Below, in pieces: positions 8,612 through 23,304 of a stretch of 24,000 nt of DNA (the first letter of the stretch is position 1; every line of letters begins with the position of its first letter). The notes beneath the pieces were generated by a model. It made no database searches, was not told the origin of the DNA, and worked only from the letters and a program-made list of their open reading frames with translations. A program made the translations under genes and the position numbers. Origin of the DNA: Pseudogulbenkiania sp. MAI-1 (GTDB lineage Bacteria; Pseudomonadota; Gammaproteobacteria; Burkholderiales; Chromobacteriaceae). The stretch lies in assembly GCF_000527175.1 (NCBI RefSeq), contig NZ_AZUR01000001.1, positions 2,408,913-2,432,912 of the forward strand, read 5' to 3'.

Positions 8612-8720
8612 CTTGAGCTCCTGCGCTATTAATCTGCTTTGTTCGACAAATTCTACTTGCCAATAGTATACGAATTTTTCTATGCGTATAAGAAAATTAA
8701 GCAGAATCGTAACGAATGAC
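8612..8720 (-). promoter_or_regulatory. AT-rich putA 5' control region (candidate promoter/operator)
   Basis: Markedly AT-rich compared with its flanks. TATACT (-10-like, minus strand, 8670-8665) has only a weak -35. Inverted repeat TATACG/CGTATA at 8667-8672 / 8685-8690, and an outer TCTGCTT/AAGCAGA repeat. Confidence 0.25.
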
Positions 8721-9174
8721 GCTACAGGAGTTAGTCAGCAGTAGGTAGATCTTCGCCTTATCGCCGACACGAAGCATCGCTTCCCAGTCTGTCCGCGCCA
8801 GAGCTCAACCTTGCACCCCGCCTTCAGCGGGCTTTCTCCCAGCTCGAAGCGGCCAGCGGCGCAAGATCATTGGGACAGACCATGGGCGCTGGTTACTATC
8901 TTGCGCATCCTCTTCGCAGCGAATACAGAGAGAAGCTAAGCCCATTTCTGCCATGGTTGCTTGCGGCGACCAAGACATCTTAGTTGTGAGTCGACAGCAG
9001 ATGTCTTGGGGCTGGAGCGCAGTCTAGCTGGTCCGTCTAAGAAAAACTGGCCATGGTGCAAGAGAGCCTCGAGCTAGGGCAAACGGCGCCAGGCATAGTT
9101 ACTGCGCCGGGAGCGGGAAGCGTTTCCATCAATTCACTCCCCGGGAGATAGCCAGGGACCAACCGCGCAGAGAA

Positions 9175-9618
9175 TCACTCGTGCAGGTCGGGATGTCGGG
9201 TCACCAGCAGCCAGACCGCATGCTGGATCACCTCCTCCGGCGTCTCGGCAAGAAAGCGGCAGCGCCGGAGAAAGGCGCTCAGGGTGACTCGCCCTTCTTC
9301 CGGGCATTCTGGGAACGCGACTTCGATACTGTCATGGCGGGGGACAGGGGGATATGACCGTATCTCGAAACCATAGGCGGCCGCCAGCGCCTTCAGACCG
9401 CGGAGGCCGGATGGCATAGCGGCGTGTCGGATCCGGTTGTCGGCGATCGGAAACAGTTTTCCATTATCGTCGCACAACCCCGCAAAATACTGGCAGATGG
9501 CCTGGTGCAAGGCGGCCTGCGGATCGAGCTCATGCTCGGCACAATAGGCCTGGAAGGTGGCTAACGAAACGGCAAGATGGCCGTCTTCACCGGGATAGTC
9601 AAAGCGAATACGTGGCAT
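9175..9618 (-). CDS. Hypothetical protein (147 aa), possibly an internal two-repeat architecture
   Basis: Clean ORF with GC-rich third positions. I recognise no family. Divergent from the HugZ-like gene. Confidence 0.55.
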   Translation of the reverse strand: MPRIRFDYPGEDGHLAVSLATFQAYCAEHELDPQAALHQAICQYFAGLCDDNGKLFPIADNRIRHAAMPSGLRGLKALAAAYGFEIRSYPPVPRHDSIEVAFPECPEEGRVTLSAFLRRCRFLAETPEEVIQHAVWLLVTRHPDLHE

Positions 9619-9820
9619 GGCTCACCTCTTTCCAGGACGCTGGACGGTATGGTGCGCGAGCCCTTCGCCCCGCTAGATTGGGCTCACGCCGAATGCTGCC
9701 CCATGAGCGATGCCGAATCTGTAGCAGGTTAGCAGGAAGGCCATCTCCATGCGTAAGCAAAGAGCACTAGCGTTCACCATGTGATCTTGAGAAAGCATAG
9801 CAGGGTCGCCATCTCCCTCA

Positions 9821-10516
9821 ATGGCAACCTCCCTCACCGAGCCCACTGCTTATTGGAATTCACGTATGCAAATCCCGATCGAGTCCGTTCTTACCCTGCT
9901 GCACGAGACCAGGTTCGGCACGTTGGCCACTCACTCGACTCAGCTACCGGGCTACCCTTACGCCACCGCGGTGCCGTATGTGATGGACGAAAACCATCGA
10001 CCGGTGATCTGTATCAGCGCCCTGGCGGAGCACACCAAGAATGTGCTCGCCGACCCGAGGGTGAGCTTCTCGGTAGTGCAAGCCGGGGCAACGGAGGTTC
10101 AGGCTGCCGCCCGGGTCACCCTCATCGCCGACGCGGAACGGCTCGAGGCTCTGCCAGAATGGCTGGCCCGCTTTCTCCGTTATGAGCCGGGTGTCGAACA
10201 GCTCCTGTCCCTTGACTTCCTGTTCTTCAGATTAATGCCCCAACGCGTCCGCTTCATTGCAGGTATCGGTCGCATGGGCTGGCTGGAGGAGCACGAGTGG
10301 AGCGCACTCTGCCCACTACCGGCGGCCGACGAGGTGAAACTGGTGCAAGTGCTGTCCCCTGCCGTGAGGGCCGGCGTTCGCGTGCTCGGGATCGACTGCT
10401 ACGGGATCGACTATGAATTCAATGGACACCGGCAACGGCAGCGGTTTCCGAATGGCACGTTGCCAGCGGAAACGGTGAGAAAAGCCGCGCGGAGCATGGC
10501 CCCGAATCTCGTGTGA
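9821..10516 (+). CDS. HugZ / pyridoxamine-5'-phosphate-oxidase-like FMN-binding split-barrel protein with a DUF2470-like C-terminal region
   Basis: FGTLATHS...GYPYATAVPYVMDENHRPVICISALAEHTKNVLADPRVSFSV matches the conserved N-terminal pattern of HugZ/PNPOx-related proteins. The start is uncertain (ATG 9821 or ATG 9866); neither has a good SD. Confidence 0.7.
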   Translation: MATSLTEPTAYWNSRMQIPIESVLTLLHETRFGTLATHSTQLPGYPYATAVPYVMDENHRPVICISALAEHTKNVLADPRVSFSVVQAGATEVQAAARVTLIADAERLEALPEWLARFLRYEPGVEQLLSLDFLFFRLMPQRVRFIAGIGRMGWLEEHEWSALCPLPAADEVKLVQVLSPAVRAGVRVLGIDCYGIDYEFNGHRQRQRFPNGTLPAETVRKAARSMAPNLV

Positions 10517-10703
10517 CGTGAGGGGTCTTGCCCGCTCTCCCGAGAGCTGGCCGAGCAGGGTGCGTCCTTCTGAGCTTTGCCTATGCACTGTGCGGACTAC
10601 CCTGCTCTACCCGCATCACAAGACCGGTCATTCCCGCCGCGCCATCACCGGGGAGTGAGACGGTTCTTCCCCGATTTTTGTCTCCCCTCACCGCCCCCGC
10701 CTC

Positions 10704-10731
10704 TTGAAATCGAAGTCTTCTGCGCTAGCCT
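10704..10731 (+). promoter_or_regulatory. Promoter-like motif P1: TTGAAA-N16-TAGCCT, within the shared 10-mer CTTGAAATCG
   Basis: TTGAAA at 10704-10709 and TAGCCT at 10726-10731, with a C-rich tract (CCCCGCC) just upstream. A near-identical arrangement recurs at 12206-12233. Confidence 0.35.
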
Positions 10732-10900
10732 GATGTCGACGGTTGGCCCACGGGTCCACCGCGCCAGCCAGTGACCGGCCAGGAGCCTCGTCCACAGAAA
10801 CGGTGGATAAGTCTGTGCATAGCCCTCTCCTGTCGGTCCCGCTCGCTGGCCACTCCTTGATCGGGCCATACTGCCCATAAAATAGGCGAAGGGGATAATC

Positions 10901-11770
10901 ATGCATCATGACCTGCTCATCCACTGTCTGGTTAATAACGACCAGGACCGTATCGATAACCTGCTGCAGCGCCATCCTGATGTCGCGCAGGCGCTCGACG
11001 ACGTTCTGACCACCGTCGACCTCAGCCCGGTGACGGCACCGGCGCACTGGCTCACCCCCCTCTACGTCCCGGTGGTGGTGCTGTCGCGCCACAGCCTGTC
11101 GCCCGCCCCCTTGCCGGTCGACGCCTTGACGGAGCACCTGGCAGGGCTGACCGGCAGGGCCAGCATCCTCGTGGCGCCCACACTGCTCACGCTCCCCCGC
11201 CTCATCGATTACAGTCCGTGTGAGCATTACGGGCTGGCCGCCCAGTTCGCCTTCAATCAACTCCTGGGGGAAGATGGACCCTACCCCAATGAACTGCGCC
11301 ACTACGTCGGACACGAAGGGTATCTGCGCCAGGCCGAAGGGTTGCTGCTGGCCGGGGTGATGGGCCCGGACCGGGACACGGCCAGCGTCGTCCTGCACCC
11401 GACCGCCGAGGGCCTGCTGGATCTGGCGCGGCTGCTCAGCTTGCACTTCAGCGAGGAAGGCCAACCCAGCCCGCGGGTCTACGTCGGCATCCCGAGCCTG
11501 TATAGTGACTTCCGCCGCCATGCCCTGAACCTGCAGGCGTACACCTCGATCGAGCAGCTAGTGGCTCACCACCCCGATGAGACGATCGACATCCGGCCAC
11601 TGCCGGGCCCGTCCCAAGCCAACCCGATTACCTGCCAGGTCTCGGTCGGGGGACAGCCCACCACGCGCATTACCGTATTGCGGGAGGGCTGGAGCGATTT
11701 CACCCGCTCGCTCAGTCAGTGCCAGCATCGTTATGAGGAGGCGGATATCCAACTGACCGCACCGGTCTGA
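10901..11770 (+). CDS. Hypothetical protein (289 aa)
   Basis: AAGGGGA SD 5 nt upstream of the ATG. Strong GC3 bias in this frame. The overlapping minus ORF 10688..11521 has the R/G/Q-rich composition of an antisense shadow. I recognise no family. Confidence 0.6.
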   Translation: MHHDLLIHCLVNNDQDRIDNLLQRHPDVAQALDDVLTTVDLSPVTAPAHWLTPLYVPVVVLSRHSLSPAPLPVDALTEHLAGLTGRASILVAPTLLTLPRLIDYSPCEHYGLAAQFAFNQLLGEDGPYPNELRHYVGHEGYLRQAEGLLLAGVMGPDRDTASVVLHPTAEGLLDLARLLSLHFSEEGQPSPRVYVGIPSLYSDFRRHALNLQAYTSIEQLVAHHPDETIDIRPLPGPSQANPITCQVSVGGQPTTRITVLREGWSDFTRSLSQCQHRYEEADIQLTAPV

Positions 11771-11906
11771 GGCGGCAGTGAGCCCGGAGTCATCAGGTGG
11801 GCCGGCCCGGCCGGCCTCCCGATGGCAGAGCCCGCCACCACGGCTTGTTTCCAGGCCTGGCGGGCGGGCGATTACCGTCGGGCGTGTCCACCAGGAGAGT
11901 CGAGTG

Positions 11907-12089
11907 ATGTCCAGAATGACCGCGAAAACCTCGAAAGCCTCGAAAGCCTCGTCACGCGCTCCCACCCGGCGGCGGTTCCTCGGGGAGTTCATCGGTGCCG
12001 TGCGGGAAGGGCCGAGACTTTACTTCGCCCCGCTCATTGGGGCGATCCGGGCCATCCGGCGCGAATGGCTCAACACTGGCCGGGAATAA
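11907..12089 (+). CDS. Small basic hypothetical protein (60 aa)
   Basis: AGGAGA at 11893-11898 precedes GTG 11904 / ATG 11907. Product is MSRMTAKTSKASKASSRAPTRRRFLGEFIGAVREGPRLYFAPLIGAIRAIRREWLNTGRE, a basic N-terminus followed by an amphipathic C-terminus. Contains the 9-bp tandem repeat cctcgaaag x2.5 at 11929-11951. Confidence 0.3.
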   Translation: MSRMTAKTSKASKASSRAPTRRRFLGEFIGAVREGPRLYFAPLIGAIRAIRREWLNTGRE

Positions 12090-12205
12090 GGGCTCCTTCT
12101 CCCCGCCCTGCTCCCGGCGGCCCGACACTGTTGCTGCTCCCGTCATACCCTTCCGCCGGGCGCCGGCCAGAGCTCGCTTTCCCCGCCGCTTGCCCTCTCC
12201 AGCAC

Positions 12206-12233
12206 TTGAAATCGCCGCGTCATCCCGTAGGCT
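12206..12233 (+). promoter_or_regulatory. Promoter-like motif P2: TTGAAA-N16-TAGGCT (twin of P1)
   Basis: TTGAAA at 12206-12211 and TAGGCT at 12228-12233. It carries the same 10-mer CTTGAAATCG (12205-12214) and a C-rich upstream tract, and lies about 30 nt upstream of the ATG at 12265. Confidence 0.35.
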
Positions 12234-12264
12234 TGATTGACCTACTTCACTGGCGAGGTTGCTC

Positions 12265-13026
12265 ATGAACTATCTCCATGTCCACGCGGTACTGCAGGAA
12301 CCGACCCAATGCCGGGTAGGCTATTCCTGTCGTCGGGACGGTTTGAGCGGGGTGATCGAGGTGACCTGGCCGCGCGCGGCGAGTGACGGCACGCTGGTGG
12401 CCGAACTGGTGGCGTTGCGTTACCTGTTGTCGGTCGCCGGCGTGGCGGGCCGTGAGCGCCAGGGCGGGGCCGGGCTGCAGCTGACGGTCAGCCATGGCGC
12501 GATTCGCAAGCTGCAGCGCCAGTCCTCGGCCAAGCAGATGCTGGCGCACTACGCCCAATTCCTGCAGACGCGTTATCGGGATGCCGGGATCGGGGTAGCA
12601 AAGCAGCCCTCCTGGGCCACGGAGATGGCACGACTGGAGCCGTCCCTCATCCTGCCGGCCCAGCCGGTGCTGGAGACGCTGGCAACCCCACTCGGGGCTG
12701 TGGCCCTGACACAGCATGCCCTGGAGCGTTTCATTGAGCGCGGCACTCGCCCCGGCTGCAACGCCAGCCAGGCCTATATCTCGTTGCAGCGGCTGGCGGC
12801 CTCCGCCGAGTGTCGGGAAGTGGTGCCGGTGCCGAGCCAGCAGCGGGCTTGGGAGGCCCGGCATGGCCAGCGCGCCCGCTTCCTGCTGCACGATTCCACC
12901 CGGCTGTGCCTGGTGATCGGTTCCGGCTACCAGCACCAGCCGACGCTGCTGAGTTGTTACCGGCTGGACGAGGGTGACCGACTGGCGCCGGTCAAGGTCT
13001 ACCGTGGCGCCTATGCCCCGATCTGA
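12265..13026 (+). CDS. Hypothetical protein (253 aa), two-region architecture
   Basis: GAGG SD 6 nt before ATG 12265; the track TTG at 12259 is less likely. GC3-rich frame. The C-terminal region has LTQHALERFIER ... TLLSCY, reminiscent of small TxHAxxRxxxR toxin-like domains (DUF4258-like). The assignment is tentative. Confidence 0.6.
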   Translation: MNYLHVHAVLQEPTQCRVGYSCRRDGLSGVIEVTWPRAASDGTLVAELVALRYLLSVAGVAGRERQGGAGLQLTVSHGAIRKLQRQSSAKQMLAHYAQFLQTRYRDAGIGVAKQPSWATEMARLEPSLILPAQPVLETLATPLGAVALTQHALERFIERGTRPGCNASQAYISLQRLAASAECREVVPVPSQQRAWEARHGQRARFLLHDSTRLCLVIGSGYQHQPTLLSCYRLDEGDRLAPVKVYRGAYAPI

Positions 13027-13122
13027 TCGAACGAAACCCGGCCAGCCCCGCCCTGCGTTGGCTTGGGGCGGTGTGCCGGCCGGGCACGGTGATGGGTCAG
13101 GTGGGTCGGCAAGCCGTATGGC

Positions 13123-13353
13123 TCAGTGGGCTTCACCGCTGGCCGCCGGCGCCAGCACCGGTTCGGCGCGGTAAATCACGCCCGGATTCAGCAGGCATTC
13201 GTCTTGCCGCATCACCAGCCAGCCGCAGTCGGGGTAGCCCGGCGCGGTGCGATGATAGTGATAGCGCAGTCCGAATTGATCCTCGATCCAGCCATAAATC
13301 GGACCGTCCTGGAATTGGCCGATCACCGGCCCGAGGTGTTCGATCAGCAGCAT
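13123..13353 (-). CDS. Small hypothetical protein (76 aa)
   Basis: A strong SD (AAGGAG, 7 nt spacer) precedes the ATG at 13353 (MLLIEHLGPVIGQFQDGPIYGWIEDQF...). The 88 extra codons of the track ORF upstream of it (to 13617) look non-coding. Confidence 0.5.
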   Translation of the reverse strand: MLLIEHLGPVIGQFQDGPIYGWIEDQFGLRYHYHRTAPGYPDCGWLVMRQDECLLNPGVIYRAEPVLAPAASGEAH

Positions 13354-13364
13354 GGTCTTGCTCC

Positions 13365-13541
13365 TTATATTAAGGTGTGTGATGGGGCCCATCTCGGGCC
13401 GGTGTTCAGACCTGGAGCGTGGCACGGCCGCGCTCGATGCAAGGAGGCACAAATCTCCTCGCGCGGGTAGTTCAACAGCAACGGCATGACGACCGGGCTG
13501 GCGATAGCCAGCAGGGTGATCAACGCCAACAGCTGGGTCAT
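13365..13541 (-). CDS. Possible small membrane peptide (58 aa) upstream of the 76-aa gene
   Basis: MTQLLALITLLAIASPVVMPLLLNYPREE... has an N-terminal hydrophobic helix. Its stop lies 11 nt before the next ATG with that gene's SD in between, which is an operon-like layout. Its own SD is weak. Confidence 0.25.
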   Translation of the reverse strand: MTQLLALITLLAIASPVVMPLLLNYPREEICASLHRARPCHAPGLNTGPRWAPSHTLI

Positions 13542-13817
13542 ACTGTCCCACTTGTCCCTGGCAGGCTTCCTGTCGATCAACACGAAACCAGCATGTCATA
13601 AAAAAGTCGGGTTTCAAGGGGGGGCGGCAGGGTGACGCCAGGCGTTGATCGCAGGCAGTCCCCGGCCACGGAGAGGTGCCGTGCTCGGTGGTCCCGGGCG
13701 TGTCGGCGGGACGTCTCCTCGAGGCCAGTGTCGTCGCACATGGCCAGCAGGTAAGCAGTCAGCCCTCAAGACGGCAGGGGCACGGGCGCTCAGAAAGGCC
13801 GGTCAGCACTTTGGCCG

Positions 13818-13922
13818 AAGATCGGTACAAACACCGACAGTAAGATCGGCAAAACTATCTGCCCATTCCTAGATAAGCCACTGAGCTGGTTGCCTTATAA
13901 TCGGACGAAAGATCGGCAAAAA
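13818..13922 (+). promoter_or_regulatory. Three direct repeats AAGATCGGyA(c)AAA plus a TATAAT box upstream of fic
   Basis: Repeat copies at 13818-13831, 13842-13854 and 13909-13922. A perfect TATAAT lies at 13896-13901, 33 nt before the fic ATG. This looks like a candidate operator array. Confidence 0.35.
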
Positions 13923-13933
13923 CAGGCACCACA

Positions 13934-15235
13934 ATGGTTGATGTTTACGACGATCCCGTTCAGATGGAGCCGCTCGTCATCGACGACTCCCGCCCCGTCT
14001 TCAAAGACCTGCATGGGCTCGCTCACGAGCTGTCAGAGGTGTCCGCGTGCCTCGACGCGGCGGTCATTCCTTCGACGGCAAAAAGCCTCTCTGAACTCGT
14101 CGAGGGCCTGAACTGCTACTACAGCAACCTCATTGAAGGCCACATAACGCTCCCCATCGACATCGACCAGGCATTGCACGAGGTCACGGAGAAGGCGGAC
14201 AGGAAGAATTTGCAGAGCCTTGCGCTGGCTCACATCGAAGCGGATCGCTGGGGCAAACAGCAGTCTCTCGGCAAAGAAACACTCAAGTCATTTCTACTCA
14301 ACGTCCATCGAACATTTTGCCAGCACCTCCCCGCAGAGCTCTTGCAGCTCGACGACGGCGCCATCATGACGCCTGGCGAGTTCCGCACTTGGGAGGTGCA
14401 GGTGGGACGGCACCTCGCGCCCAAAGCCGAGACCCTTGGAAGCTTCATGGACCGGTATCAACAGGTCTATGGGCAACGACTTGATTGGGCCAAGAAGGGG
14501 GGTCTACCAAAGCTCACCAGCATGGTATCGACGTTCGCCGCACACCACCGGCTAGCCTGGATTCACCCTTTCCTGGATGGGAATGGCCGCGTCGCACGGA
14601 GCACCCTGGACGCGATGCTCCGGGCGTGCGGAGTCAGTGGCGCCAGTTTGTGGTCGATGTCCCGCGGGCTGGCGAAGACCTCGGACCAGTACAAGGCTTA
14701 CCTGGCCGGTGCCGACGAAGCTCGACATGGCGCTCTGGATGGGCGAGGCAATCTGACCGAAAAGGGGCTGGCCGAGTTCTTCCGATACGGCATGCAAACC
14801 GCGATTGACCAGGCGAACTACATGGCGTCGATGTTCTCCCTGGAAAACTTCCAGGCTCGCGCATCGGGATACTTTCGTAAGGTCCGGTACACCGACATGA
14901 AGCCAGAAGCCGCCCACTTGTATCTGCATGCGTTCGTGATGGGCGAGTTTGAGCGTGGTGAAGCCAGCCGGATTACCGGCCTAGCCGAAAGAACAGCACG
15001 ATCCGTACTGAGCGACCTCATCGGCGAGGGTTTCCTGGTGTCTGACTCGCCCAAAGGCAAGGTTCGGGTTGGATTTCCGATCCATGCCCTCGGCTCGCTG
15101 CTCCCGAACCTCTACCCCGCCGGCGATGTCGACATCACACCGGAACAGCTTGCCGAGATTCGTCACCGCAAGAAAATCGCAACGAGCAGACCGGCATCGT
15201 TTCGGCAACACATCGACAACAAGACCGAGTCCTGA
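13934..15235 (+). CDS. Fic family protein (class II, with intramolecular inhibitory helix), C-terminal wHTH-like region
   Basis: Canonical Fic active-site motif HPFLDGNGRVAR (HxFx[D/E]GNGRxxR). The N-terminal inhibitory motif [S/T]xxxE[G/N] is present as SNLIEG in YYSNLIEGHITL. Confidence 0.9.
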   Translation: MVDVYDDPVQMEPLVIDDSRPVFKDLHGLAHELSEVSACLDAAVIPSTAKSLSELVEGLNCYYSNLIEGHITLPIDIDQALHEVTEKADRKNLQSLALAHIEADRWGKQQSLGKETLKSFLLNVHRTFCQHLPAELLQLDDGAIMTPGEFRTWEVQVGRHLAPKAETLGSFMDRYQQVYGQRLDWAKKGGLPKLTSMVSTFAAHHRLAWIHPFLDGNGRVARSTLDAMLRACGVSGASLWSMSRGLAKTSDQYKAYLAGADEARHGALDGRGNLTEKGLAEFFRYGMQTAIDQANYMASMFSLENFQARASGYFRKVRYTDMKPEAAHLYLHAFVMGEFERGEASRITGLAERTARSVLSDLIGEGFLVSDSPKGKVRVGFPIHALGSLLPNLYPAGDVDITPEQLAEIRHRKKIATSRPASFRQHIDNKTES

Positions 15236-16253
15236 TCACCCCGGAAACCTGGTCACTTTTGCACGCTGTTCTACATACCGGGCGTCGGTGCGAACCATAA
15301 TACGCGGTTGTGATGTAAATTCTAGAGTGGCCGAGTTCTTCTGAGACCTTGTATCTAACCCTTTTCTCTAAGTCCGCAGGTATCTCATCTTTGACCCCAC
15401 CCCGCACTGGGGTTTTGTATCCCCCGCTAAGTTCTTCGAACCTGTTATTAGCATATTCATGGCGTAGACCATGAGGAGTTACTCCCAATTCCGCCTTGGT
15501 GACCCCATGCTTTTCCAGAACATGACGGAAGTGACGGAGGTTTTGCTTCAAGGTTTTGTTTCGGATACCGATGTGGTTGTCACCATTCCCAGCCAGTTCC
15601 TTCGCCTTTTTCAAAACCGCACGCTGGCTTTCCGTCTCCACGGGGACAAACCTGATACGACCTCCTTTAGTCCCCCGTTTCAGCATCAAGCTTTTGCCGT
15701 CGATACTGATAGAGTCGTTGGGCTTGAACATGGCAGCCTCTTTAACCCTAAGTCCAAATTCGCGAAGCAATTCGAGTTGAATCGCGACTCGTTTATCCTC
15801 TTTCTCGATTCTCTGCAACAGTTCCTCAGGATCAATACTGCTCGCTGACCAACTTTTGTCTGTTTCAGCCCGATAAACCCGCTTAATCGATTCCGGATTG
15901 CTCACAAGGTCACATAAGGGAGGAATTGTTCCAGGTTTATCGACCCAAACAAGAAACGTACCAAGAACTGAGTGCCGAGTTTGTAGGGTGGATGGACTAA
16001 GACCCTGATTTTCCCAGTGTTTAAAGAGAGCCTCTATGTGCCTTTGTCGTAAATTGCGAACACTTTGTAGCTTGTAGCCAAGTTCTCTCAGCTGACGGAA
16101 CGACTGGAACAGGATATCTGCCCTCTTCTTGATCGTTGCCATACTGACAACCTTATCTTTTCTGGCATGGCCATGGGCATTGGCGTGTATGAGTTGATTC
16201 AACTCCTTCTGCCAATCGCCCGGCCTTATATCATATGTGTGAGTGCTGCTCAT
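15135..16253 (-). CDS. Tyrosine recombinase / integrase with an abnormal ~51-aa C-terminal read-through tail
   Basis: Catalytic set present: R (FGLRVKEA), K (TKGGRIR), HxxR (HGLRHEY), H (LGHSRIY) and Y (TTAYYG). The N-terminal region resembles the phage-integrase N-terminal domain family. ATG 16253 is preferred over TTG 16265. After YYGS (15291-15302) the frame continues through the antisense of the fic 3' end to 15135. Confidence 0.85.
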   Translation of the reverse strand: MSSTHTYDIRPGDWQKELNQLIHANAHGHARKDKVVSMATIKKRADILFQSFRQLRELGYKLQSVRNLRQRHIEALFKHWENQGLSPSTLQTRHSVLGTFLVWVDKPGTIPPLCDLVSNPESIKRVYRAETDKSWSASSIDPEELLQRIEKEDKRVAIQLELLREFGLRVKEAAMFKPNDSISIDGKSLMLKRGTKGGRIRFVPVETESQRAVLKKAKELAGNGDNHIGIRNKTLKQNLRHFRHVLEKHGVTKAELGVTPHGLRHEYANNRFEELSGGYKTPVRGGVKDEIPADLEKRVRYKVSEELGHSRIYITTAYYGSHRRPVCRTACKSDQVSGVIRTRSCCRCVAETMPVCSLRFSCGDESRQAVPV

Positions 16254-16440
16254 TTTGTCACCCAACCCATGTCAGTTAATTTCATATTTTTATTCATCAC
16301 CTGCTGCGGCCAGCAGGGCCCTGCGTCCTTAAAAAAATTCGTCCGGCTTTCCAGGCCCCCTCAATTTGAGGGCCAGCTTGCGCTGGGGCAGATACCCCAT
16401 TTATCGACCGGCATCAAGTCTCGACCTCGCCAATAATGGC
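15291..16440. mobile_element. AT-richer integrase-bearing segment (boundaries approximate)
   Basis: Base composition drops visibly relative to fic on the left and the ABC-3C genes on the right. It carries only the recombinase, and both neighbouring genes show junction damage (read-through tail on the left, truncated ATPase on the right). Confidence 0.35.
16358..16372. repeat. 15-bp palindrome CCCTCAA-T-TTGAGGG upstream of the integrase
   Basis: Perfect 7-bp arms around one central base, about 105 nt upstream of the integrase ATG. A second hairpin CCTGCTG-cggc-CAGCAGG lies at 16300-16317. Either could be a recombinase or regulator binding site. Confidence 0.4.
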
Positions 16441-16539
16441 TGAGGTCACTTCTGTGGTTCACGCACGTTCCACCCTGGGGTGGTTACGGTTTCACTCCTG
16501 TTGACCCTTGTGGGGGACACACACGGCTGACCGCTTAAT

Positions 16540-16555
16540 TCACGCGGTCGTTAAT
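16540..16555. repeat. 16-bp exact direct repeat, copy 1 (TCACGCGGTCGTTAAT)
   Basis: Identical to 16967-16982. Lies about 107 nt beyond the premature stop of the ATPase fragment. Confidence 0.6.
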
Positions 16556-16662
16556 GCCTCGGAGGTGGACATGGTCCATTGCCGGTGCGCTTAGTCGATG
16601 GAGTTCATCGGTAGTTCATGGTGGTTCGTCGAGAGTTTCGACTTGGCAGGCGATTCTTCGTC

Positions 16663-16938
16663 TCACAAAGGAGCACGGCGGCCTGGTACCAGCGTGTTGG
16701 CGACGAACACCTGCTCGTGTGGAAACTGGAACGTGACCCCGAACCAGGATACCTTCTCGCGGATGAAGCCCTCCGCAATTTTGCACTCATCCTCTCCCAT
16801 GCAGTACTCGACGATGTCCGAGAGGGACGACTTACCCGTTGAGGCTAGGCCGGTGATGATGTTCAGCCCATCGGGATTCAGGGTGAGGTCGCGCCTACGG
16901 CCGTCGTGGCTGTAGATATGAATAGAAGCAATCTTCAT
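16663..16938 (-). pseudogene. Truncated N-terminal fragment of a DUF3732-like ABC-3C ABC ATPase
   Basis: MKIASIHIYSHDGRRRDLTLNPDGLNIITGLASTGKSSLSDIVEYCMGE...WFGVTFQF matches the N-terminal strand-Walker A region (GxxxxGKS) of SMC/ABC-type ATPases of the three-component family. The frame ends after 91 codons. No Q-loop, signature or Walker B follows in any frame before the integrase segment. Confidence 0.6.
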
Positions 16939-17423
16939 GGGCGGATGGACAAACTGGTGTAGACCGTCACGCGGTCGTTAATCTGGGCGAAATCGCGGCC
17001 GAGGACGACTGCAGCGGCGCGGCATCTTTCGGCGTCTTCGGTGTTCAGCGGCTGGGGTGACACGCGCCTAGGTATGAGGCTAATGCATCCGCCATCATTC
17101 ACTCTGATACAGCCCTTGCTTGCTAGCAGTGCGAAGGCCTCTGTGGCGTACTGGACAAGCGCCCGAGCCCGTTCAGCGAAGTCGACCAGCAAGTCCGGGC
17201 GCAGTGCGAAGACCCGCAGCACCGACCGCCGCTTGTTCTCCAGAATCTCCTCACGTGAGGCCTGGTGTAGGCACATCGGCAGCACAAGCAGCGTCAAGGA
17301 GTACGGCATTGGCTTCCTGGCAATACGCTCGTACTCACGGATGGCCGCGGCCAAGACCACCGCGCAAAACGCAGGGTTGAAGAGGTTCCGCTCTTCAAAC
17401 GGGCGAGATGACCAGTTCCTCAT
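16935..17423 (-). CDS. ABC-three-component (ABC-3C) system middle component
   Basis: 162 aa. The N-terminus MRNWSSRPFEERNLFNPAFCAVVLAAAI...MPYSLTLLVLPMCLHQASRE follows the W..RP.E..NL.NPAF...(L/V)LP..LH pattern I recall for proteins annotated as three-component ABC system middle component. ATGA overlaps at both ends (17420-17423 and 16935-16938). Confidence 0.65.
   Translation of the reverse strand: MRNWSSRPFEERNLFNPAFCAVVLAAAIREYERIARKPMPYSLTLLVLPMCLHQASREEILENKRRSVLRVFALRPDLLVDFAERARALVQYATEAFALLASKGCIRVNDGGCISLIPRRVSPQPLNTEDAERCRAAAVVLGRDFAQINDRVTVYTSLSIRP
16967..16982. repeat. 16-bp exact direct repeat, copy 2 (TCACGCGGTCGTTAAT)
   Basis: Identical to 16540-16555. Lies inside the 3' end of the middle-component gene (codons INDRVT), 29 nt upstream of the ATPase-fragment ATG. 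Confidence 0.6.
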
Positions 17424-18613
17424 GCTGTCACCTTCGACGTGGCAGCCTTCAGGCGCTCAAGAAACTGCGGATGCCAGTGCACGCGCGGCATCGGCTTCTC
17501 GTCAGCGAGGATGTGGAAGCTGCCGCGGCGAACGAAGTCCTCCGTGACGTCCTTGCGGATTTGCAGGCCCTTGGACTGGTTCTCTGCCCAGTCATACAGC
17601 TGGCGGCCCGCAGCTTGGTACTCGGCCTCGTTCTGTGGCGCCTTCACCATGGCCCAGCCTTTGGCGCGCTTCCATTCTTCGACCAGGCGCAGCTCGAACT
17701 TGCGAATCTCGTCGCCGACAAGGGCGTTGACACGCGACCAATGTGCGCGTTGGGAGAACGCGCGGTAGAAGTCCAAGATTGCCATCTCCAAGCTGTCGCT
17801 GGACATGGCAATCGCCCGCAGCTGCTCGACGAACTGCCGGGTGTCTTTCATCGCGTCAATTCCCTCGTCAGGGTAGGCGTCGTCGAAGGTTATTGGCAGG
17901 CGCTCGTCGTAATACTCGCTGTTGACCTGCGCAAACTTCGCCCAGACCTCGGCGCCGGTAATGGGCTCGCGCTCGCCCTGGATGAGCTCTATAGCTTCCC
18001 TGAGCCACCACCCTTCCATGCGTTCACGGACATCAGTGCGGAACTTCGCAGCCACCGACCGCAGAAGCGGGGCGAAGGCGGCATCCAGCTCCATGATGCG
18101 CAGCGAACTATCGGCAATCACGATGCGGGCCAAGAAGTCGTCCTGCTGGGTCGCAGTCAACGAGCTGAACTTGTTTTCAATCTGCGCACTCAGCTGCGTC
18201 TTCGAGCCCTTGAGCTCGGTGACGAGCTGCTTTGCGAAGTCAGCTGGCTTGGCATCAGCACCGTAGAGGAAATACCGAAGCAGCGTGGTGGGACCGACGC
18301 GCGCCGTCGTTGCCATGCAATATGAGTGATCGCAGGCAAGGTTGCCATCGCGGATGTACCGGTCGAGCCAGATGCGGACCGACTTCCAAAAGTCGGTCGA
18401 CAGCGTGGCGACGGTCTCGCCGACCTTCTTGTGCTTCAGCGATATCAGCGTCTTTTTGCCGTCGACGTCGCGCAGTTCAACGTCGTCGTCGGCCTCTATG
18501 AGCAGTGCTTGGCTCTCGTCCTGCTTCATCAGGTGCGCCAGCGCGAAGCGAATCTGGTAGACGTAGCCGAGCCCCTGCTCCCCGGCGGCGTACTTGTCTG
18601 TTTGAGTTGCCAC
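17420..18613 (-). CDS. ABC-3C effector component: N-terminal PD-(D/E)xK dsDNA-nuclease-like (DUF4297/Cap4-type) domain plus an ABC-3C C-terminal domain
   Basis: The N-terminal region GLGYVYQIRFALAHL...LLIEADDDVELRD...LISLKHKK has the GF/YxYQ ... D-x-E ... K layout of Cap4-type nuclease domains. GGGAGGA SD lies 3-4 nt before GTG 18613, and the track start at 18706 is an alternative. Translationally coupled to the middle component. Confidence 0.7.
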   Translation of the reverse strand: MATQTDKYAAGEQGLGYVYQIRFALAHLMKQDESQALLIEADDDVELRDVDGKKTLISLKHKKVGETVATLSTDFWKSVRIWLDRYIRDGNLACDHSYCMATTARVGPTTLLRYFLYGADAKPADFAKQLVTELKGSKTQLSAQIENKFSSLTATQQDDFLARIVIADSSLRIMELDAAFAPLLRSVAAKFRTDVRERMEGWWLREAIELIQGEREPITGAEVWAKFAQVNSEYYDERLPITFDDAYPDEGIDAMKDTRQFVEQLRAIAMSSDSLEMAILDFYRAFSQRAHWSRVNALVGDEIRKFELRLVEEWKRAKGWAMVKAPQNEAEYQAAGRQLYDWAENQSKGLQIRKDVTEDFVRRGSFHILADEKPMPRVHWHPQFLERLKAATSKVTA

Positions 18614-18876
18614 TTGTCCTCCCTTGCTTACCCGCAGCCAATCACGGGCGCCTGATACCCATGTACGAAGCATTGCTGATACAGGTGACCAGAAGACTCC
18701 AGGCAATATCTACGAGAATTTATGGCATCTATACGTGGCGCAGCAATGACGTAGGGATTGTGCCAGCCACACTCTCGTTTGTCATCCTGTGAGTATCACT
18801 TGCCTACGGCTGCTTAGGATGCCAAATCACTCGCTGAAAAATCAGGTAAATTAACCCCGGACTCTAAAGCCCACTG

Positions 18877-19124
18877 CTACTGAGAATGGGGGGACGTCGC
18901 AGTCACCTTATCTTCAACGACCAGATGGGTGAGAAAGCTACTGACCTCCGCAGCCCCATGTCGCAGGGGTACCGATGATGGTGAAAGCGCAAAAAGCGCC
19001 GTACCCAATTGTTGACGTATTGCTGCTCGGTGCGCAGGCTGTAGTGCCTGACTCGCAGCGCCTCGCGCAGCACATGGCACAAGCGTGGCGCGGCAGTCCC
19101 ATTTAACTGTGTACTTTCAGGCAT
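18877..19124 (-). pseudogene. intI: Integron-integrase-like (IntI) N-terminal remnant, frameshifted and truncated
   Basis: From ATG 19124: MPESTQLNGTAAPRLCHVLREALRVRHYSLRTEQQYVNNWVRRFLRFHHHRYPCDMG. A -1/+1 shift then continues in another frame as AAEVSSFLTHLVVEDKVTATSPHSQ*. This parallels the IntI N-terminal SAM-like domain pattern R.RHYS.RTE.AYV.W..RF..FH..RHP..MG..EV..FL..LA....VS.STQNQA. None of the catalytic domain remains. Confidence 0.6.
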
Positions 19125-19269
19125 CAGCAACCCCAAAAGCTTGGGAAACAATGAAAATGCAATTACCATAACCAGTTGTACATACAGAAAAACCAAATAC
19201 CTGTATAGGTGCATATCTCATGTTGGGCGTCAGCAGTAAGCCAATTTACCACAGCAGAAGGTACTTAAA

Positions 19270-19683
19270 ATGTCTAAACAGCTTTCGTTAATAGATTATC
19301 CTAGCAGCGATGAAGGGGAAGTGTACGAGCCAGAAAATTCTGTAATCGCATCAGCTTTCATATCAAATGAAGTAATACACAACCTCGAAAGACTAGGGGT
19401 ATTTGAAAAATTTCGCCTTTATGAAGACTCGAGCTTGAGTGATTTTGTTGAACAAACCCGAATCAAGCAAGATATGATTGACAGTGCTTTAAGGGAGATT
19501 GAATCTGAATTTATTAGATTATTAGATTCAAAAGTGGTTAATGAAATAAAGAAAATTCAATCCAATGAATCTATTGATGCATTGATCTGTGAATTCAACG
19601 TAATAACAAACATATATCATATCTTGAGGCTGAAAAATAATAATTTTTCAAGCATCTCCTCCGCAATTATTAAATTGGGGTGA
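19270..19683 (+). CDS. Hypothetical acidic, predicted-helical protein (137 aa)
   Basis: AT-rich codon usage that is foreign to the rest of the window. GAAGG SD 9 nt upstream. The stop is 3 nt before the start of the next gene. I recognise no family. Confidence 0.6.
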   Translation: MSKQLSLIDYPSSDEGEVYEPENSVIASAFISNEVIHNLERLGVFEKFRLYEDSSLSDFVEQTRIKQDMIDSALREIESEFIRLLDSKVVNEIKKIQSNESIDALICEFNVITNIYHILRLKNNNFSSISSAIIKLG

Positions 19684-19686
19684 GCG

Positions 19687-20235
19687 ATGAGTGAAAATAT
19701 CGGAAAAGATGGAGAAATGCGCTTCGCAATCACGATTGCAGGGGCTTCTATCAGAGAGAATGGCCTCGACTTTACGCGCCACACGGTAACCAACCAGCCG
19801 GACCTTGGTGTCGATTACTCTGCAAAAGGCCCTGCGGAAGTACTGATTTCATTTTGTGAAATTGGCACAGGCACTGAACTTGGGGTCATTAGAGAAGCGT
19901 TTGGGCAGCCTGACCGTAAAATTGAGGCTAGGTTCGATATAAAAACGACTGAAGAAAAGTTAGCAGGAGACACTGTTGAGAAATTTGTTTCAGATGTAAA
20001 AAAACATCCGACCACTGACCTGCATGTTTTAGCTGGGGGTTCCGGTCTAACAAAATCAGCCCAAGCAAAGTTTGAAACGTATAGCGCAGCACTTCAAGAA
20101 GATGGGAAAGCACTCGTTTACATTCCTAATCAAGGGCTGGCAAAACTAGCATCCGAATATAAGCCAGAGATTCTTAGTGCGCTTGGTGGCCCGACAGGAA
20201 CGGACGAAAGCGGCCCTGGAAGCGAAAGCAAGTAA
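19687..20235 (+). CDS. Putative PD-(D/E)xK (Mrr-cat/restriction-endonuclease-like) nuclease (182 aa)
   Basis: Motif order typical of Mrr-like cores: GKDGE(10)MRFA, then QPD(39)LGVD(43)Y, then ARFD(84)IK(86)T, followed by the ...VxxFxxxV...(long-stretch)...GLTKSAQAKFE layout. Motif recognition by eye only. Confidence 0.5.
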   Translation: MSENIGKDGEMRFAITIAGASIRENGLDFTRHTVTNQPDLGVDYSAKGPAEVLISFCEIGTGTELGVIREAFGQPDRKIEARFDIKTTEEKLAGDTVEKFVSDVKKHPTTDLHVLAGGSGLTKSAQAKFETYSAALQEDGKALVYIPNQGLAKLASEYKPEILSALGGPTGTDESGPGSESK

Positions 20236-20260
20236 TTACGATGCACCTAAAAAATCGTTG

Positions 20261-20316
20261 CACCTGACAAGTTTGCCAGGCCCAGCTTTCAGCCGTTCCA
20301 GTCAAACTTGCAGGTG
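20261..20316. repeat. 56-nt imperfect inverted repeat just after the nuclease-like gene
   Basis: CACCTGaCAAGTTTG (20261-20275) pairs with CAAACTTGCAGGTG (20303-20316). That gives 14 paired bases with one extrahelical A (20267) and a 27-nt loop. No U-tract follows. Confidence 0.5.
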
Positions 20317-20445
20317 AGCTTTACGTTGGGCATTTTGAAAATGACTGCGGTCTCGATTTATCGCTTCAAAGATCGGTGGGTTTGAATCGCCCCTGATTTG
20401 CTAGTCGCCTAGGTGGCTGCTAACGTATCGGAAAGCAGCCATTCG

Positions 20446-20718
20446 TTATAGAAAGAACGAACATCCGCTTTGGCCGAATTGTGCGCGTAGCTTGCCCGTC
20501 AGGTTCTGGAACTGAGCAGTCGCTCGAATGACTGCTCTGTGAGACATGCGGTCGGCTGCAGTTGGCCGGTAGCACCAGTTTAGCCATACCTCCGGAAAGC
20601 GGCCATTGAGGTCGAGTAGGCCGCCGAATGCCTGCTTTCGGGTAAGCGTCCCCGAAGGCAGGCCACGGCCATAAGCGGCCTTATGCCACCCACAAGACAA
20701 CCAGTCATTTTGGTTCAC
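20446..20718 (-). CDS. Hypothetical protein (90 aa), doubtful
   Basis: GTG start without a clear SD, intermediate base composition, no recognisable motif. It contains an 8-bp-stem inverted repeat GAGCAGTC/GACTGCTC. Confidence 0.25.
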   Translation of the reverse strand: MNQNDWLSCGWHKAAYGRGLPSGTLTRKQAFGGLLDLNGRFPEVWLNWCYRPTAADRMSHRAVIRATAQFQNLTGKLRAQFGQSGCSFFL

Positions 20719-20772
20719 TTCAGGCCATTCAATAGCCGAATTCGAGACAGACTGTGCTTCGCTCCAATCAGG

Positions 20773-21558
20773 CTACAACTGCACGATCCGTTTGCGGAAC
20801 TCGTCTGGCGTCGCTCCCATCAACCGGTGGAACATCGCGATGAAAGCGGACGACGTGCTGTAGCCCAACTCCAGCGCCACCGTCTGCACGGTCAGCCCAT
20901 CCTCGAGCATCGAAAGCGCCCGCACCAGCCGCAACCGCTGTCGCCACTCCACGAACGACATGCCAAGGTCGCGCTGACAGCGCCGCGACAACGTGCGCTC
21001 GGTACTGTGCACCACACTTGCCCACGCCTCCAGCGGGCGATTGTCGCCCGGCTGCTGGCGCAGTGCCTCTAGCACCTGGCCCAGTGCCCGGTCTTCGGAG
21101 ATCGGCAGATAGGTATCCTGGCGTGGCGCCAGACTCATCTGGTCGACCAGCACCTGCATCAGCCGTTCGTCGTCGTTGCTACGCGGATAGTCTACCTGGC
21201 GCGCCACCAGGTCGGCCAGGATCGCCTTGCTGATGGGGCCGACCGCCAGCGTACACACTTCGGTGGGCAGCCTGCCGCAACGCTCTGACGCAATGTCCAA
21301 CACGCAATAGCAAGCCTCTGACCGCGTACTGGCCCCATGCTCCGTCTGCGGAGGCAGCCACAGACCGTAATGAGGTGGCGTCAGGTACTGGCGGCTTCCC
21401 ACGGTCAGTTCGATCACGCCACTGAACGAGAACACAAATTCTCCCCAGTTGTGGCGCTCCGTCGGGTAGGTCGTCACCTCGTTCAGCCGCATCGTCCGGA
21501 AAACCAGCGAATGCGGCAGGGACGTCCCGAACGGATACGAAATTTGAGCGCCAGGCAT
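20773..21558 (-). CDS. AraC-family transcriptional regulator (N-terminal cupin-like sensor, C-terminal double HTH)
   Basis: C-terminal AraC signature region LEAWASVVHSTERTLSRRCQRDLGMSFVEWRQRLRLVRALSMLEDG.TVQTVALELGYSTSSAFIAMFHRLMGATPDEF. Confidence 0.9.
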   Translation of the reverse strand: MPGAQISYPFGTSLPHSLVFRTMRLNEVTTYPTERHNWGEFVFSFSGVIELTVGSRQYLTPPHYGLWLPPQTEHGASTRSEACYCVLDIASERCGRLPTEVCTLAVGPISKAILADLVARQVDYPRSNDDERLMQVLVDQMSLAPRQDTYLPISEDRALGQVLEALRQQPGDNRPLEAWASVVHSTERTLSRRCQRDLGMSFVEWRQRLRLVRALSMLEDGLTVQTVALELGYSTSSAFIAMFHRLMGATPDEFRKRIVQL

Positions 21559-21716
21559 CTTGTCGGAAACCTCGTATGCGTTGTCTGGTTTTCATTATAT
21601 CCATGTAGACCGCCACCTCCACAATGATTTCCGTGGGTGAAGGCGCTTTGGCTCGAGTCAGGCGAGAACCTTCAGACACTGTTCTTGTTAAGTCATAGCC
21701 ACCATGAGGTACCCAA

Positions 21717-22748
21717 ATGAAGGCTCTCGATACACTTGCTCAACTTCCCAGACTCAATCTGCGAGGATTTACCTCGCCCGTGCAATACCTCGAACGCTTC
21801 AGCGCGGAAATCGGCATCGAGGTATGGTGCAAGCGCGACGATATCGGTACGGTTGGCCTTGCCGGTAACAAGGTGCGCAAGCTCGAAGTCGAACTCGCGT
21901 ACGCCATCGCCCAAGGCGCCAGGCACCTGGTTGCCGAAGGTTCGCGTCTTTCCAACGCGGCGCGCGCAGTTGCAGCGGCGGCGGCGGCCACTGGTCTTCG
22001 CTGCACGCTTGTGCTGTGCCACGACGAACCATGTGAGCCAGTGGGCAATCTGCTTCTGGACGGACTGTTCGGGGCGCATCTGCGATTCGTTGGCAATGCC
22101 AGCTGGGCTGAACTCGCTCAGCATGCCGAGGAGGTGGTGACCGAACTCGAGAATGCGGGGGAGCGTGTCTATCGGCTTCCCATCGGCTGTGCCTCGGAGA
22201 GAAGTTCCTTAGGCTTTGCCCTCGCATACGCTGAGCTTCACGCTCAAATGGCCGCGCAAGGGCGTGAGGTTGGCACCATCGTGCACGCCAGTTCATCGGG
22301 GGGAACCCACTCGGGACTGGTGCTTGGCAATGCGCTTCACGAGTCGCCGAGCACGATCCGAGGCATCGTCGTCGCCGGGGAGGTCTATGACGATGTTCCG
22401 GGTCAATACCTCGCCTTTGCGCAGGGCGGTGCACGTCTGATCGGCGCGGAGGTTGAACTGACGCGCAGCGACATCAATCTCACCGAGGACTATCTCGGGG
22501 ACGGCTACGGGCTGCCCGCTCCCGGGGTGATGGAGGCGATCGATCTTCTTGCCACGACCGAAGGCATACTCGTGGATCCGGTCTACAGCGCCAAGGCTGT
22601 CGCTGCGCTCATCGATCTCGCTGCAAGGGACGAATTGGAAGGCCCTGTTGTCTTCTGGCACACGGGCGGGTATCACTCGCTCTTCGATCCTCATTACTCG
22701 CGGAAAGTCTGGACCGAGATCGAACGGCTTTCTGCCGTGCGGCTGTAG
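21717..22748 (+). CDS. PLP-dependent 1-aminocyclopropane-1-carboxylate deaminase / D-cysteine desulfhydrase family enzyme
   Basis: 343 aa. GNKVRKLE motif with the PLP-binding Lys, SSGGTHSG loop and WHTGG near the C-terminus. GAGG SD 7 nt upstream. Divergent from the AraC gene. Confidence 0.88.
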   Translation: MKALDTLAQLPRLNLRGFTSPVQYLERFSAEIGIEVWCKRDDIGTVGLAGNKVRKLEVELAYAIAQGARHLVAEGSRLSNAARAVAAAAAATGLRCTLVLCHDEPCEPVGNLLLDGLFGAHLRFVGNASWAELAQHAEEVVTELENAGERVYRLPIGCASERSSLGFALAYAELHAQMAAQGREVGTIVHASSSGGTHSGLVLGNALHESPSTIRGIVVAGEVYDDVPGQYLAFAQGGARLIGAEVELTRSDINLTEDYLGDGYGLPAPGVMEAIDLLATTEGILVDPVYSAKAVAALIDLAARDELEGPVVFWHTGGYHSLFDPHYSRKVWTEIERLSAVRL

Positions 22749-23304
22749 CTCGTCGAGCGCAAGGCATCCGCCGGAGGCGCTCTGGCTAGTTCAGCCGGAG
22801 CGTCTCGCCCTCGGGTAGAGTTGTCTTCGAGGCACCTTGCCGGTTCAAGTCGGAGAAGCCCGGCGATCTCGTGGAACTGGCCAGCCCGCTTTTTCCTGAT
22901 TCACCACTCGGCCTCTCAGGGCGGCTCGGTCGCCCTGTGCTCATCCATCCGGCCTGACGCCGGACCACGCCGAACAGGAACACAACGACGTCTACCGAGC
23001 CGGTGGTCGCTTGTTCGGCCTTTCTTAGATGAATGGCCACATTGCCGGGGAGAGCGGCCAATTCGCCGGCCAGTGGCCACAGTGAGTACGCATTCCACAA
23101 AGTTGAAAGCTGCCATTCAGTAGTATTTCAAGCCAATGTCTGGTGTGCGGCTCATAGCTGTCCTAGCTGACTCAGTACGTCACCGGCAGCTCAGGCCGAG
23201 GTACAGAAGTTGGGCGACCGGCAGTTCTCCTCCGAGTCACTCGGTCGGCCACAATAGCCGATCAAGTTGCGCTTACACTCAACGCGCCCTGCCGGGCGTC
23301 CAAT

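Follow-up and report, generated by a model that had tools for sequence, protein, structure and literature searches.

The 24,000-nucleotide stretch of Pseudogulbenkiania sp. MAI-1 (Chromobacteriaceae) analysed here (contig NZ_AZUR01000001.1, positions 2,408,913 to 2,432,912; hereafter the window, whose own numbering is used for all features unless another locus is named) contains between 18800 and 20331 the end of an insertion sequence (IS), the 5′ remnant of an integron integrase gene (intI), its attachment site (attI) and a unit of two genes that closes on a cassette recombination site (attC). The minus-strand intI and attI represent a platform lineage that is also found in three other genera of Chromobacteriaceae. 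The two-gene unit at 19223–20325 is a genuine mobile gene cassette, which lies at the attI crossover, points away from intI and has its own attC at 20245–20331. The integrase gene itself is dead, with ~77 codons left, a frameshift, and the other ~240 codons, including all catalytic residues, lost. We therefore read the stretch as a decayed integron platform with one cassette, lying within a horizontally acquired mosaic region, and put the probability of this reading at about 0.88. An earlier sequence-only reading had taken the same region for a fossil chromosomal integron, and every feature that it claimed is present where it had been placed.

Integrase remnant and attI site

The intI remnant (18900..19124, minus strand) covers residues ~10–86 of a ~320-amino-acid (aa) protein. 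From the ATG at 19124 (minus strand) one frame reads MPESTQ...RVRHYSLRTEQQYVNNWVRRFLRFHHHRYPCDMG and a second gives ...GAAEVSSFLTHLVVEDKVTATS; the N-terminal hallmark of integron integrases, RVRHYSLRTEQQYV..WVRRFLRFHH, lies in the first, and the sense changes frame after DMG (GAAEVSSFLTHLVVEDKVTATS). This splitting of an IntI N-terminal pattern over two frames, proposed by the sequence-only reading, was borne out by the translations and by profile matches: the first piece matches PF13495 in Pfam (E = 6e-8), and the two best NCBIfam models for the remnant are both integron integrases (NF011946, E = 7e-11; TIGR02249, E = 8e-7). The intI 5′ end and attI together (18899–19224) are 81–85% identical to loci in four genomes, which belong to three other genera of the family, and in these related loci intI goes on past the point at which it is cut in the window. 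One orthologue (L011:1575-2528) is an open frame of 317 aa, with 77% and 62% identity to the pieces in the window's two frames. Orthologue fragments at 84–85% nucleotide identity match TIGR02249 at 3e-53 and 4e-32, against 1e-9 for XerC, and the TIGR02249 match spans the part of the model that holds the integron-specific insertion. Because the orthologues score TIGR02249 so far above XerC, the remnant is an IntI and not a XerC/D recombinase, and the alignment to IntI proteins that had been suggested as a check places it with the integron integrases. Orthologues in two other genera (L011:1575-2528 and L010:797-1315) share a ...TRMSAPR tail, followed by a stop before the region of the catalytic Tyr, and their frames reach model positions no higher than 287 of 315. 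The intI–attI platform is also present in several copies within one genome (G019), and may be a 3′-truncated integrase platform that spreads within a larger mobile element.

Aligned at the DNA level to its orthologues, the window's intI has a 3-nucleotide (nt) insertion (YVNNW for YVNW) and a 1-nt loss in a G run, which is the frameshift near 18963, and the homology stops abruptly at 18899/18900. The description of a frameshifted remnant that then ends was thus right about the frameshift and about the stop of homology, but it missed the 3-nt insertion and the truncation: the gene does not simply end, since the right end of an IS3-family element cuts it at 18899/18900. With the gene cut after ~codon 77, the IntI-specific domain and the catalytic R-H-R-Y are absent; because everything after that codon is missing, the locus holds a remnant and not a functional integron.

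The IS3-family right end (18800..18899, plus strand) comprises the decayed 3′ end of a transposase gene and the right terminal repeat, which ends ...GGGGGGACGTCG at 18899; it is the last ~100 bp of an element whose remainder is missing. IS copies in relatives have right ends that match it at 87–88% identity and a transposase frame that finishes ...KSGKLSPDSKALCY and a stop, and the alignment to relatives diverges directly after CGTCG. Many of these matches lie at contig ends, as a repeated element would lead one to expect. A tRNA or a group II intron end was ruled out as the nature of the repeated 80–93 bp at 18807–18899, which are the IS3 end, and Rfam and tRNA scans of 14–24 kb gave no match. 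An IS3-family element thus went into intI after ~codon 77, at 18899/18900, and its later deletion down to the last ~100 bp joined the stub to a broken ABC-3C/Lamassu operon.

The attI region (19125..19221) extends from the intI start codon to the crossover, with a short inverted repeat (ACCTGTATAGGT) right before the core. Its 81–85% conservation with four loci from three further genera reaches GTT and goes no further: in the five-locus alignment, conservation runs from the intI start to ...TCA(C/T)GTT and gives way to complete divergence, and homology to the relatives' attI ends at 19219–19224. Conservation up to GTT followed by divergence is the behaviour expected of an attI crossover at G/TT when the first cassette differs from genome to genome. 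One to three attC sites are present on each of the related platforms, and the comparison of related genomes that had been proposed as a check found the same intI–attI platform with different cassettes beginning at the same GTT. The window's site accordingly lies next to the intI start and has a G/TTRRRY crossover where cassettes begin. At the junction core GTTGGGC (19222..19228, plus strand; crossover at 19222/19223) attI contributes the G and the cassette TTGGGC. A candidate cassette promoter (Pc; 19141..19169, plus strand) would consist of TTGGGA, 17 nt and TACCAT and would be weak in this copy; relatives have at the same attI columns conserved −35/−10-like boxes, TTGCAA or TTGTAA, 17–18 nt, then TATCAT or TGCCAT. 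Both cassette genes are intact, and the cassette is probably still transcribed from attI, conceivably from this weak Pc-like promoter.

GTTGGGC occurs, as the sequence-only reading had noted, 98 bp from the intI ATG (19222–19228) and again 90 bp past the stop codon at 20235 (20325–20331). Its recurrence is at chance level: the window has 6 copies where 4.3 ± 2.2 are expected, and 32 copies of GTTRRRY where 30.6 are expected, and 7-mer statistics were therefore rejected as integron evidence. The left 7-mer of an inserted cassette consists of the attI G and the cassette's TTRRRY, and the right one of the cassette's G and the TTRRRY that formerly followed the attI G; identity of the two is permitted but not required and so has no evidential weight of its own. 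What lies above chance is their placement, since both copies fall on homology breakpoints and one closes the window's only significant attC-model match.

The two-gene cassette and its attC site

Between the two GTTGGGC copies lie two genes on the same strand (137 and 182 codons), in a cassette of 1103 bp (19223..20325, plus strand) with a GC content of 42%, compared with ~60–63% for the flanking core DNA. The earlier view that the two cores flank a cassette-like unit was upheld by the breakpoints and by matching boundaries with attC elsewhere. BLASTN between the window and a Chromobacterium locus (L028) returned a single block, 19222–20259, that begins on the G of the first GTTGGGC and stops a few bases into attC; at L028 an attC that ends GTTGGAC stands before the unit. 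In all four close copies with matching boundaries (L028, L029, L034 and L025) a canonical attC follows the unit (58–73 bits); more distant homologues (≤66% identity) had no attC. The cassette thus recurs with the same boundaries in other contexts, namely Chromobacterium subtsugae, two Pectobacterium genomes and a metagenome contig, each time followed by attC.

Paired homologues at 55–87% identity were found in metagenomes, C. subtsugae, Pectobacterium and Paraburkholderia. The gene pair is rare and widely scattered (Chromobacteriaceae, Pectobacterium, Pseudomonas, Paraburkholderia and methanotrophs); no copy was found in the family's 67 other genomes, and 18700–20800 has no repeats in its own genome. 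No integron integrase above threshold was found in the Pectobacterium genome of L034, which carries the cassette, nor did tblastn detect intI within 4–8 kb of any homologous cassette; outside integrons, too, the cassette can thus be met as a stray unit with an attC. In both Pectobacterium loci (L034 and L029) the cassette with its canonical attC adjoins conjugative-transfer genes. The order at L025 is a Gabija-like OLD and UvrD pair, the 137/182-aa pair with attC, a 158-aa gene with attC and a Shedu-type (SduA_C) gene, which looks like a defence-rich cassette cluster. The copy in the window would have arrived by IntI-mediated attI × attC recombination at a time when an integrase was present in this host or in an earlier one.

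The attC (87 bp; 20245..20331, plus strand) is the sole significant covariance-model match in the window. Home-made models were trained on 11 sites from the related platforms and from arrays around homologous cassettes, with the R-box/L-box structure written on the alignment; in this training structure 81% of cells were paired, 13 of the 21 pairs showed double changes, none of 500 shuffles was as good, and slid controls were 27–46% paired. A model built without the window's sequence (R1), run unfiltered on both strands of the whole 24 kb, matched 20245–20331 (plus strand) at full length (25 bits, E = 1.5e-4; next best, 9 bits), and a control model (R2) that used only the eight sites not from homologous cassettes gave the same top match (19.5 bits, E = 0.013); a covariance-model search, too, had been among the checks proposed for the sequence-only reading. 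By the model alignment, the site consists of R'' (20245–20251), L'' (20257–20268) with extra-helical G20260 and A20267, L' (20310–20319) and the terminal core R' GTTGGGC (20325–20331). It has the R''-L''...L'-R' palindrome, the extra-helical bases and the terminal GTTRRRY of attC, with R'' as the one exception: this box is degenerate, reading ACCTAAA for RYYYAAC with AAC changed to AAA, and its last position forms the lone non-standard pair among 21 model positions, of which 20 are paired.

In the bottom-strand fold, the L box forms a stem with one bulged base (−18.8 kcal/mol, z = −3.3, 2 of 200 shuffles as good), which is the 56-nt imperfect inverted repeat with one extrahelical base that the sequence-only reading had described. 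Homology to the attC of the L028 copy of the cassette covers the R'' box, the spacer and the first bases of L''. Relative to the attC sites of homologous cassettes, the L-box stem is kept through three double substitutions with both bulged bases at the same positions, and the shared geometry runs GTT, one bulged base, a 6-bp stem, a bulged A and a further stem; this argues for a real attC under structural constraint and not for a chance hairpin. We take the attC of this family, RYYYAAC ... TTCAAGCGGAC ... GTTAGRC, to resemble the Pseudomonas/Xanthomonas type. A search for more attC sites downstream (20332–20772) returned noise only (8.2 bits, E = 6.5 at 20418–20451). A heuristic attC finder (AAC...GTTRRRY plus fold) was set aside: it gave 67 whole-genome matches, mostly spurious in GC-rich coding DNA, and it missed the window's site because R'' is AAA. 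The changed R'' suggests that this attC has begun to decay.

The first cassette gene (19270..19683, plus strand) encodes a 137-aa protein (AlphaFold pLDDT 91) that is always paired with the second, every one of its homologues (55–82% identity) adjoining a homologue of gene 2. A fold search with its model gave no PDB match, and the protein has no Pfam, NCBIfam or PADLOC match. The second gene (19687..20235, plus strand) encodes a 182-aa protein with a predicted Mrr-like PD-(D/E)xK nuclease fold (pLDDT 86). The best PDB matches of this model are the PD-(D/E)xK domains of EcoT38I (E = 7e-4) and MspJI (E = 1.5e-3), atlas structure matches to Mrr_cat clusters have TM values of 0.55–0.65, and D39, D43, D84 and K86 are invariant in 20 homologues, such that the predicted model has a restriction-endonuclease-like fold with a conserved D ... 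(D/E)xK. The 182-aa protein matched no Pfam family at E ≤ 0.01, Mrr_cat included, and no NCBIfam model, and a PDB sequence profile search with it gave nothing relevant. Elsewhere, copies of the pair adjoin Gabija-like OLD/UvrD genes, a Shedu-type gene and AbiE. Judged by fold and neighbourhood, the cassette most probably encodes a small conflict system built on a nuclease (phage defence or toxin–antitoxin-like), in which the 137-aa protein might act as a sensor or inhibitor of the Mrr-like nuclease. That the two proteins form an undescribed two-gene anti-phage or toxin–antitoxin-like system, which has spread as an integron cassette, including into integrase-less genomes and conjugative elements, and is stranded in the window, is a tentative proposal that we would sooner doubt than assert. 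The nuclease fold and the company of defence cassettes nevertheless make this rare gene pair a reasonable candidate for a defence screen.

Origin of the locus and present mobility of the cassette

A core ABC-transporter protein falls into one 90%-identity cluster with proteins named from Pseudogulbenkiania, in keeping with the genus of the host. Same-genus relatives match the window only at 8000–8641 and from ~23300 on; these two flanks are not adjacent in any relative examined, and 8642–23298 is non-syntenic. The ABC-3C/Lamassu remnant next to the stub (16697–18819) shares 97% identity with a contig from a different genus of the family (G005:C15), which points to a recent horizontal transfer of this block. 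The match confined to the flanks, the non-synteny and the likeness of the ABC-3C remnant to another genus therefore place the stub in a patchwork of imported DNA and not in an old resident integron. The low GC content of the cassette (42% against ~60–63%) and the lack of the gene pair in the 67 other genomes likewise speak for a foreign origin. An ancestral sedentary chromosomal integron of the species, decayed in place, would also have a chromosomal location, a dead intI and a single fixed cassette, and other intI remnants are present on the same chromosome; however, two of the three same-genus genomes have no match to 18700–20450 and the third has only a 41-bp match in the IS remnant, the entire 8.6–23.3 kb block is non-syntenic accessory DNA with that 97% identical ABC-3C remnant in it, and a platform present at 81–87% identity in three other genera, with several copies in one genome, behaves as a mobile one. 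We consider ancestral residence improbable. An imported and decayed small integron fits better than a fossil of an ancestral chromosomal integron because the locus belongs to a mosaic region that was acquired horizontally and is missing from same-genus relatives; of the sequence-only reading, the integron and its one two-gene cassette stand. It would be barely credible for the region to hold no integron at all, that is, a generic tyrosine-recombinase fragment, an AT-rich islet, two chance GTTGGGC and an ordinary hairpin. The 7-mer count is indeed at chance level and an N-terminal SAM-like domain alone is not IntI-specific, but the homology breakpoints lie exactly on both cores, the orthologues are clearly integron integrases, the same gene pair has a canonical attC elsewhere and the attC models match this site only; we regard such a coincidence as refuted by the L028 cassette boundary, the attC-model match, the attI breakpoint and the TIGR02249-scoring orthologues.

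Several points weigh against the decayed-integron reading or parts of it. The IntI-specific domain and the catalytic residues are uncheckable in the window, being deleted, and the intI lineage in relatives also looks damaged, such that the last action of a working integrase on this platform is uncertain. The attC models are home-made from 8–11 sites, with a shortened calibration and rough E-values, the control reaching only E = 0.013; R'' does not conform to RYYYAAC, and because it reads ACCTAAA the bottom strand's minimum-energy fold leaves the R box open. In a simple promoter scan the window's TTGGGA/TACCAT fell below threshold and no promoter passed. Neither cassette protein matched PADLOC 2.0 at E ≤ 1, and the defence role is deduced wholly from fold and neighbourhood, with no known defence family matched.

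The cassette appears to be no longer excisable in this cell because the intI at the locus is lost, the one long intI elsewhere in the genome is frameshifted and R'' no longer has the C that would pair beside the cleavage site. This long intI, at 3.02 Mb (G000:C1:3020057-3021074, plus strand), has a single frameshift, near ...KEWG/WQYIFP, and is 43% identical to the window's remnant over the N-terminus. The cassette would not be truly fixed if an integrase supplied in trans, by an incoming plasmid or a revertant of the 3.02-Mb gene, could excise or exchange it: attI is conserved up to the core, attC retains R', the L-box stem, both bulged bases and 20 of 21 paired model positions, and the long intI has that single frameshift. 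We hold this to be unlikely, if worth keeping in mind, given the lost C of the R'' AAC, the 43% identity of an integrase that may not recognise this attI and the failure to find an intact intI in this genome.

An IS3-type transposase open reading frame (3019227–3020060) is directly upstream of the 3.02-Mb intI, and beyond it is a tandem array of ~14 copies of a 215-bp unit (3016028–3019053). A third, unrelated N-terminal stub of an integron integrase (G000:C1:918063-918212, minus strand; ~50 codons, ...LIRLKHYSLRTEEAY...) ends in a stop and is 37% identical to the window's remnant. Within the window, 44 bp at a fic/integrase junction (15232–15275) are 95–98% identical to single sites in two same-genus genomes and may be the attachment site of an integrase-borne islet. 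Positions 20467–20571 are ~71% similar, in inverted orientation, to L012:1214-1318, which in a different genus abuts a truncated intI (E = 5e-6 against a small local database), and could be a shared repeat or an element end.

Comparison with known integrons and defence cassettes

The locus is a well-known sort of genomic fossil and no new system, and it leaves the current understanding of integrons unchallenged. Broken integrons, IS-mediated disruption and intI pseudogenes beside cassette remnants are documented (PMC4889954, PMC9024848, PMC12444791); intI pseudogenes were found near 15 of 279 CALIN, and IS elements have been argued to help disrupt integrons (PMC4889954). The window shares with CALIN, single attC sites and intI pseudogenes (PMC4889954, PMC9024848) an inactivated intI, an IS at the break and a short cassette remnant. 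It differs from CALIN in having one attC only while attI and the intI 5′ end are still attached, which makes the integron origin of the remnant unambiguous. Single attC sites were discarded in the 2016 IntegronFinder analysis (PMC4889954), and the present site indicates that those dropped by standard pipelines can be real. Chromosomal integrons of Xanthomonas (PMC12444791) are likewise chromosomal platforms whose integrase is frequently inactivated, but they occupy a fixed ancestral locus, whereas the window's platform is in a mosaic acquired region absent from same-genus relatives. To these documented broken integrons and cassette remnants the locus adds one more example, and it is a clean, fully traceable case of integron death, with an IS going into intI, the IS being deleted and a lone cassette left stranded with a decaying attC.

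Its interest lies mainly in the uncharacterised cassette and less in the integron stub. Phage-defence genes in integron cassettes are documented (10.1101/2024.07.02.601719, PMC12614218), and the window's cassette is like them in being compact and promoterless with a nuclease-type module, copies of which stand elsewhere in arrays beside Gabija-like and Shedu-like cassettes; it differs in that the pair matches no PADLOC model and that its defence role is predicted. With Mrr_cat (PF04471; PDB 7e8r, EcoT38I; 4f0p, MspJI) the 182-aa protein shares the predicted fold and the acidic and Lys positions D39/D43 ... D84-x-K86, but it falls below the Pfam threshold and is a stand-alone domain of 182 aa that has no DNA-recognition domain and is paired with a 137-aa partner.

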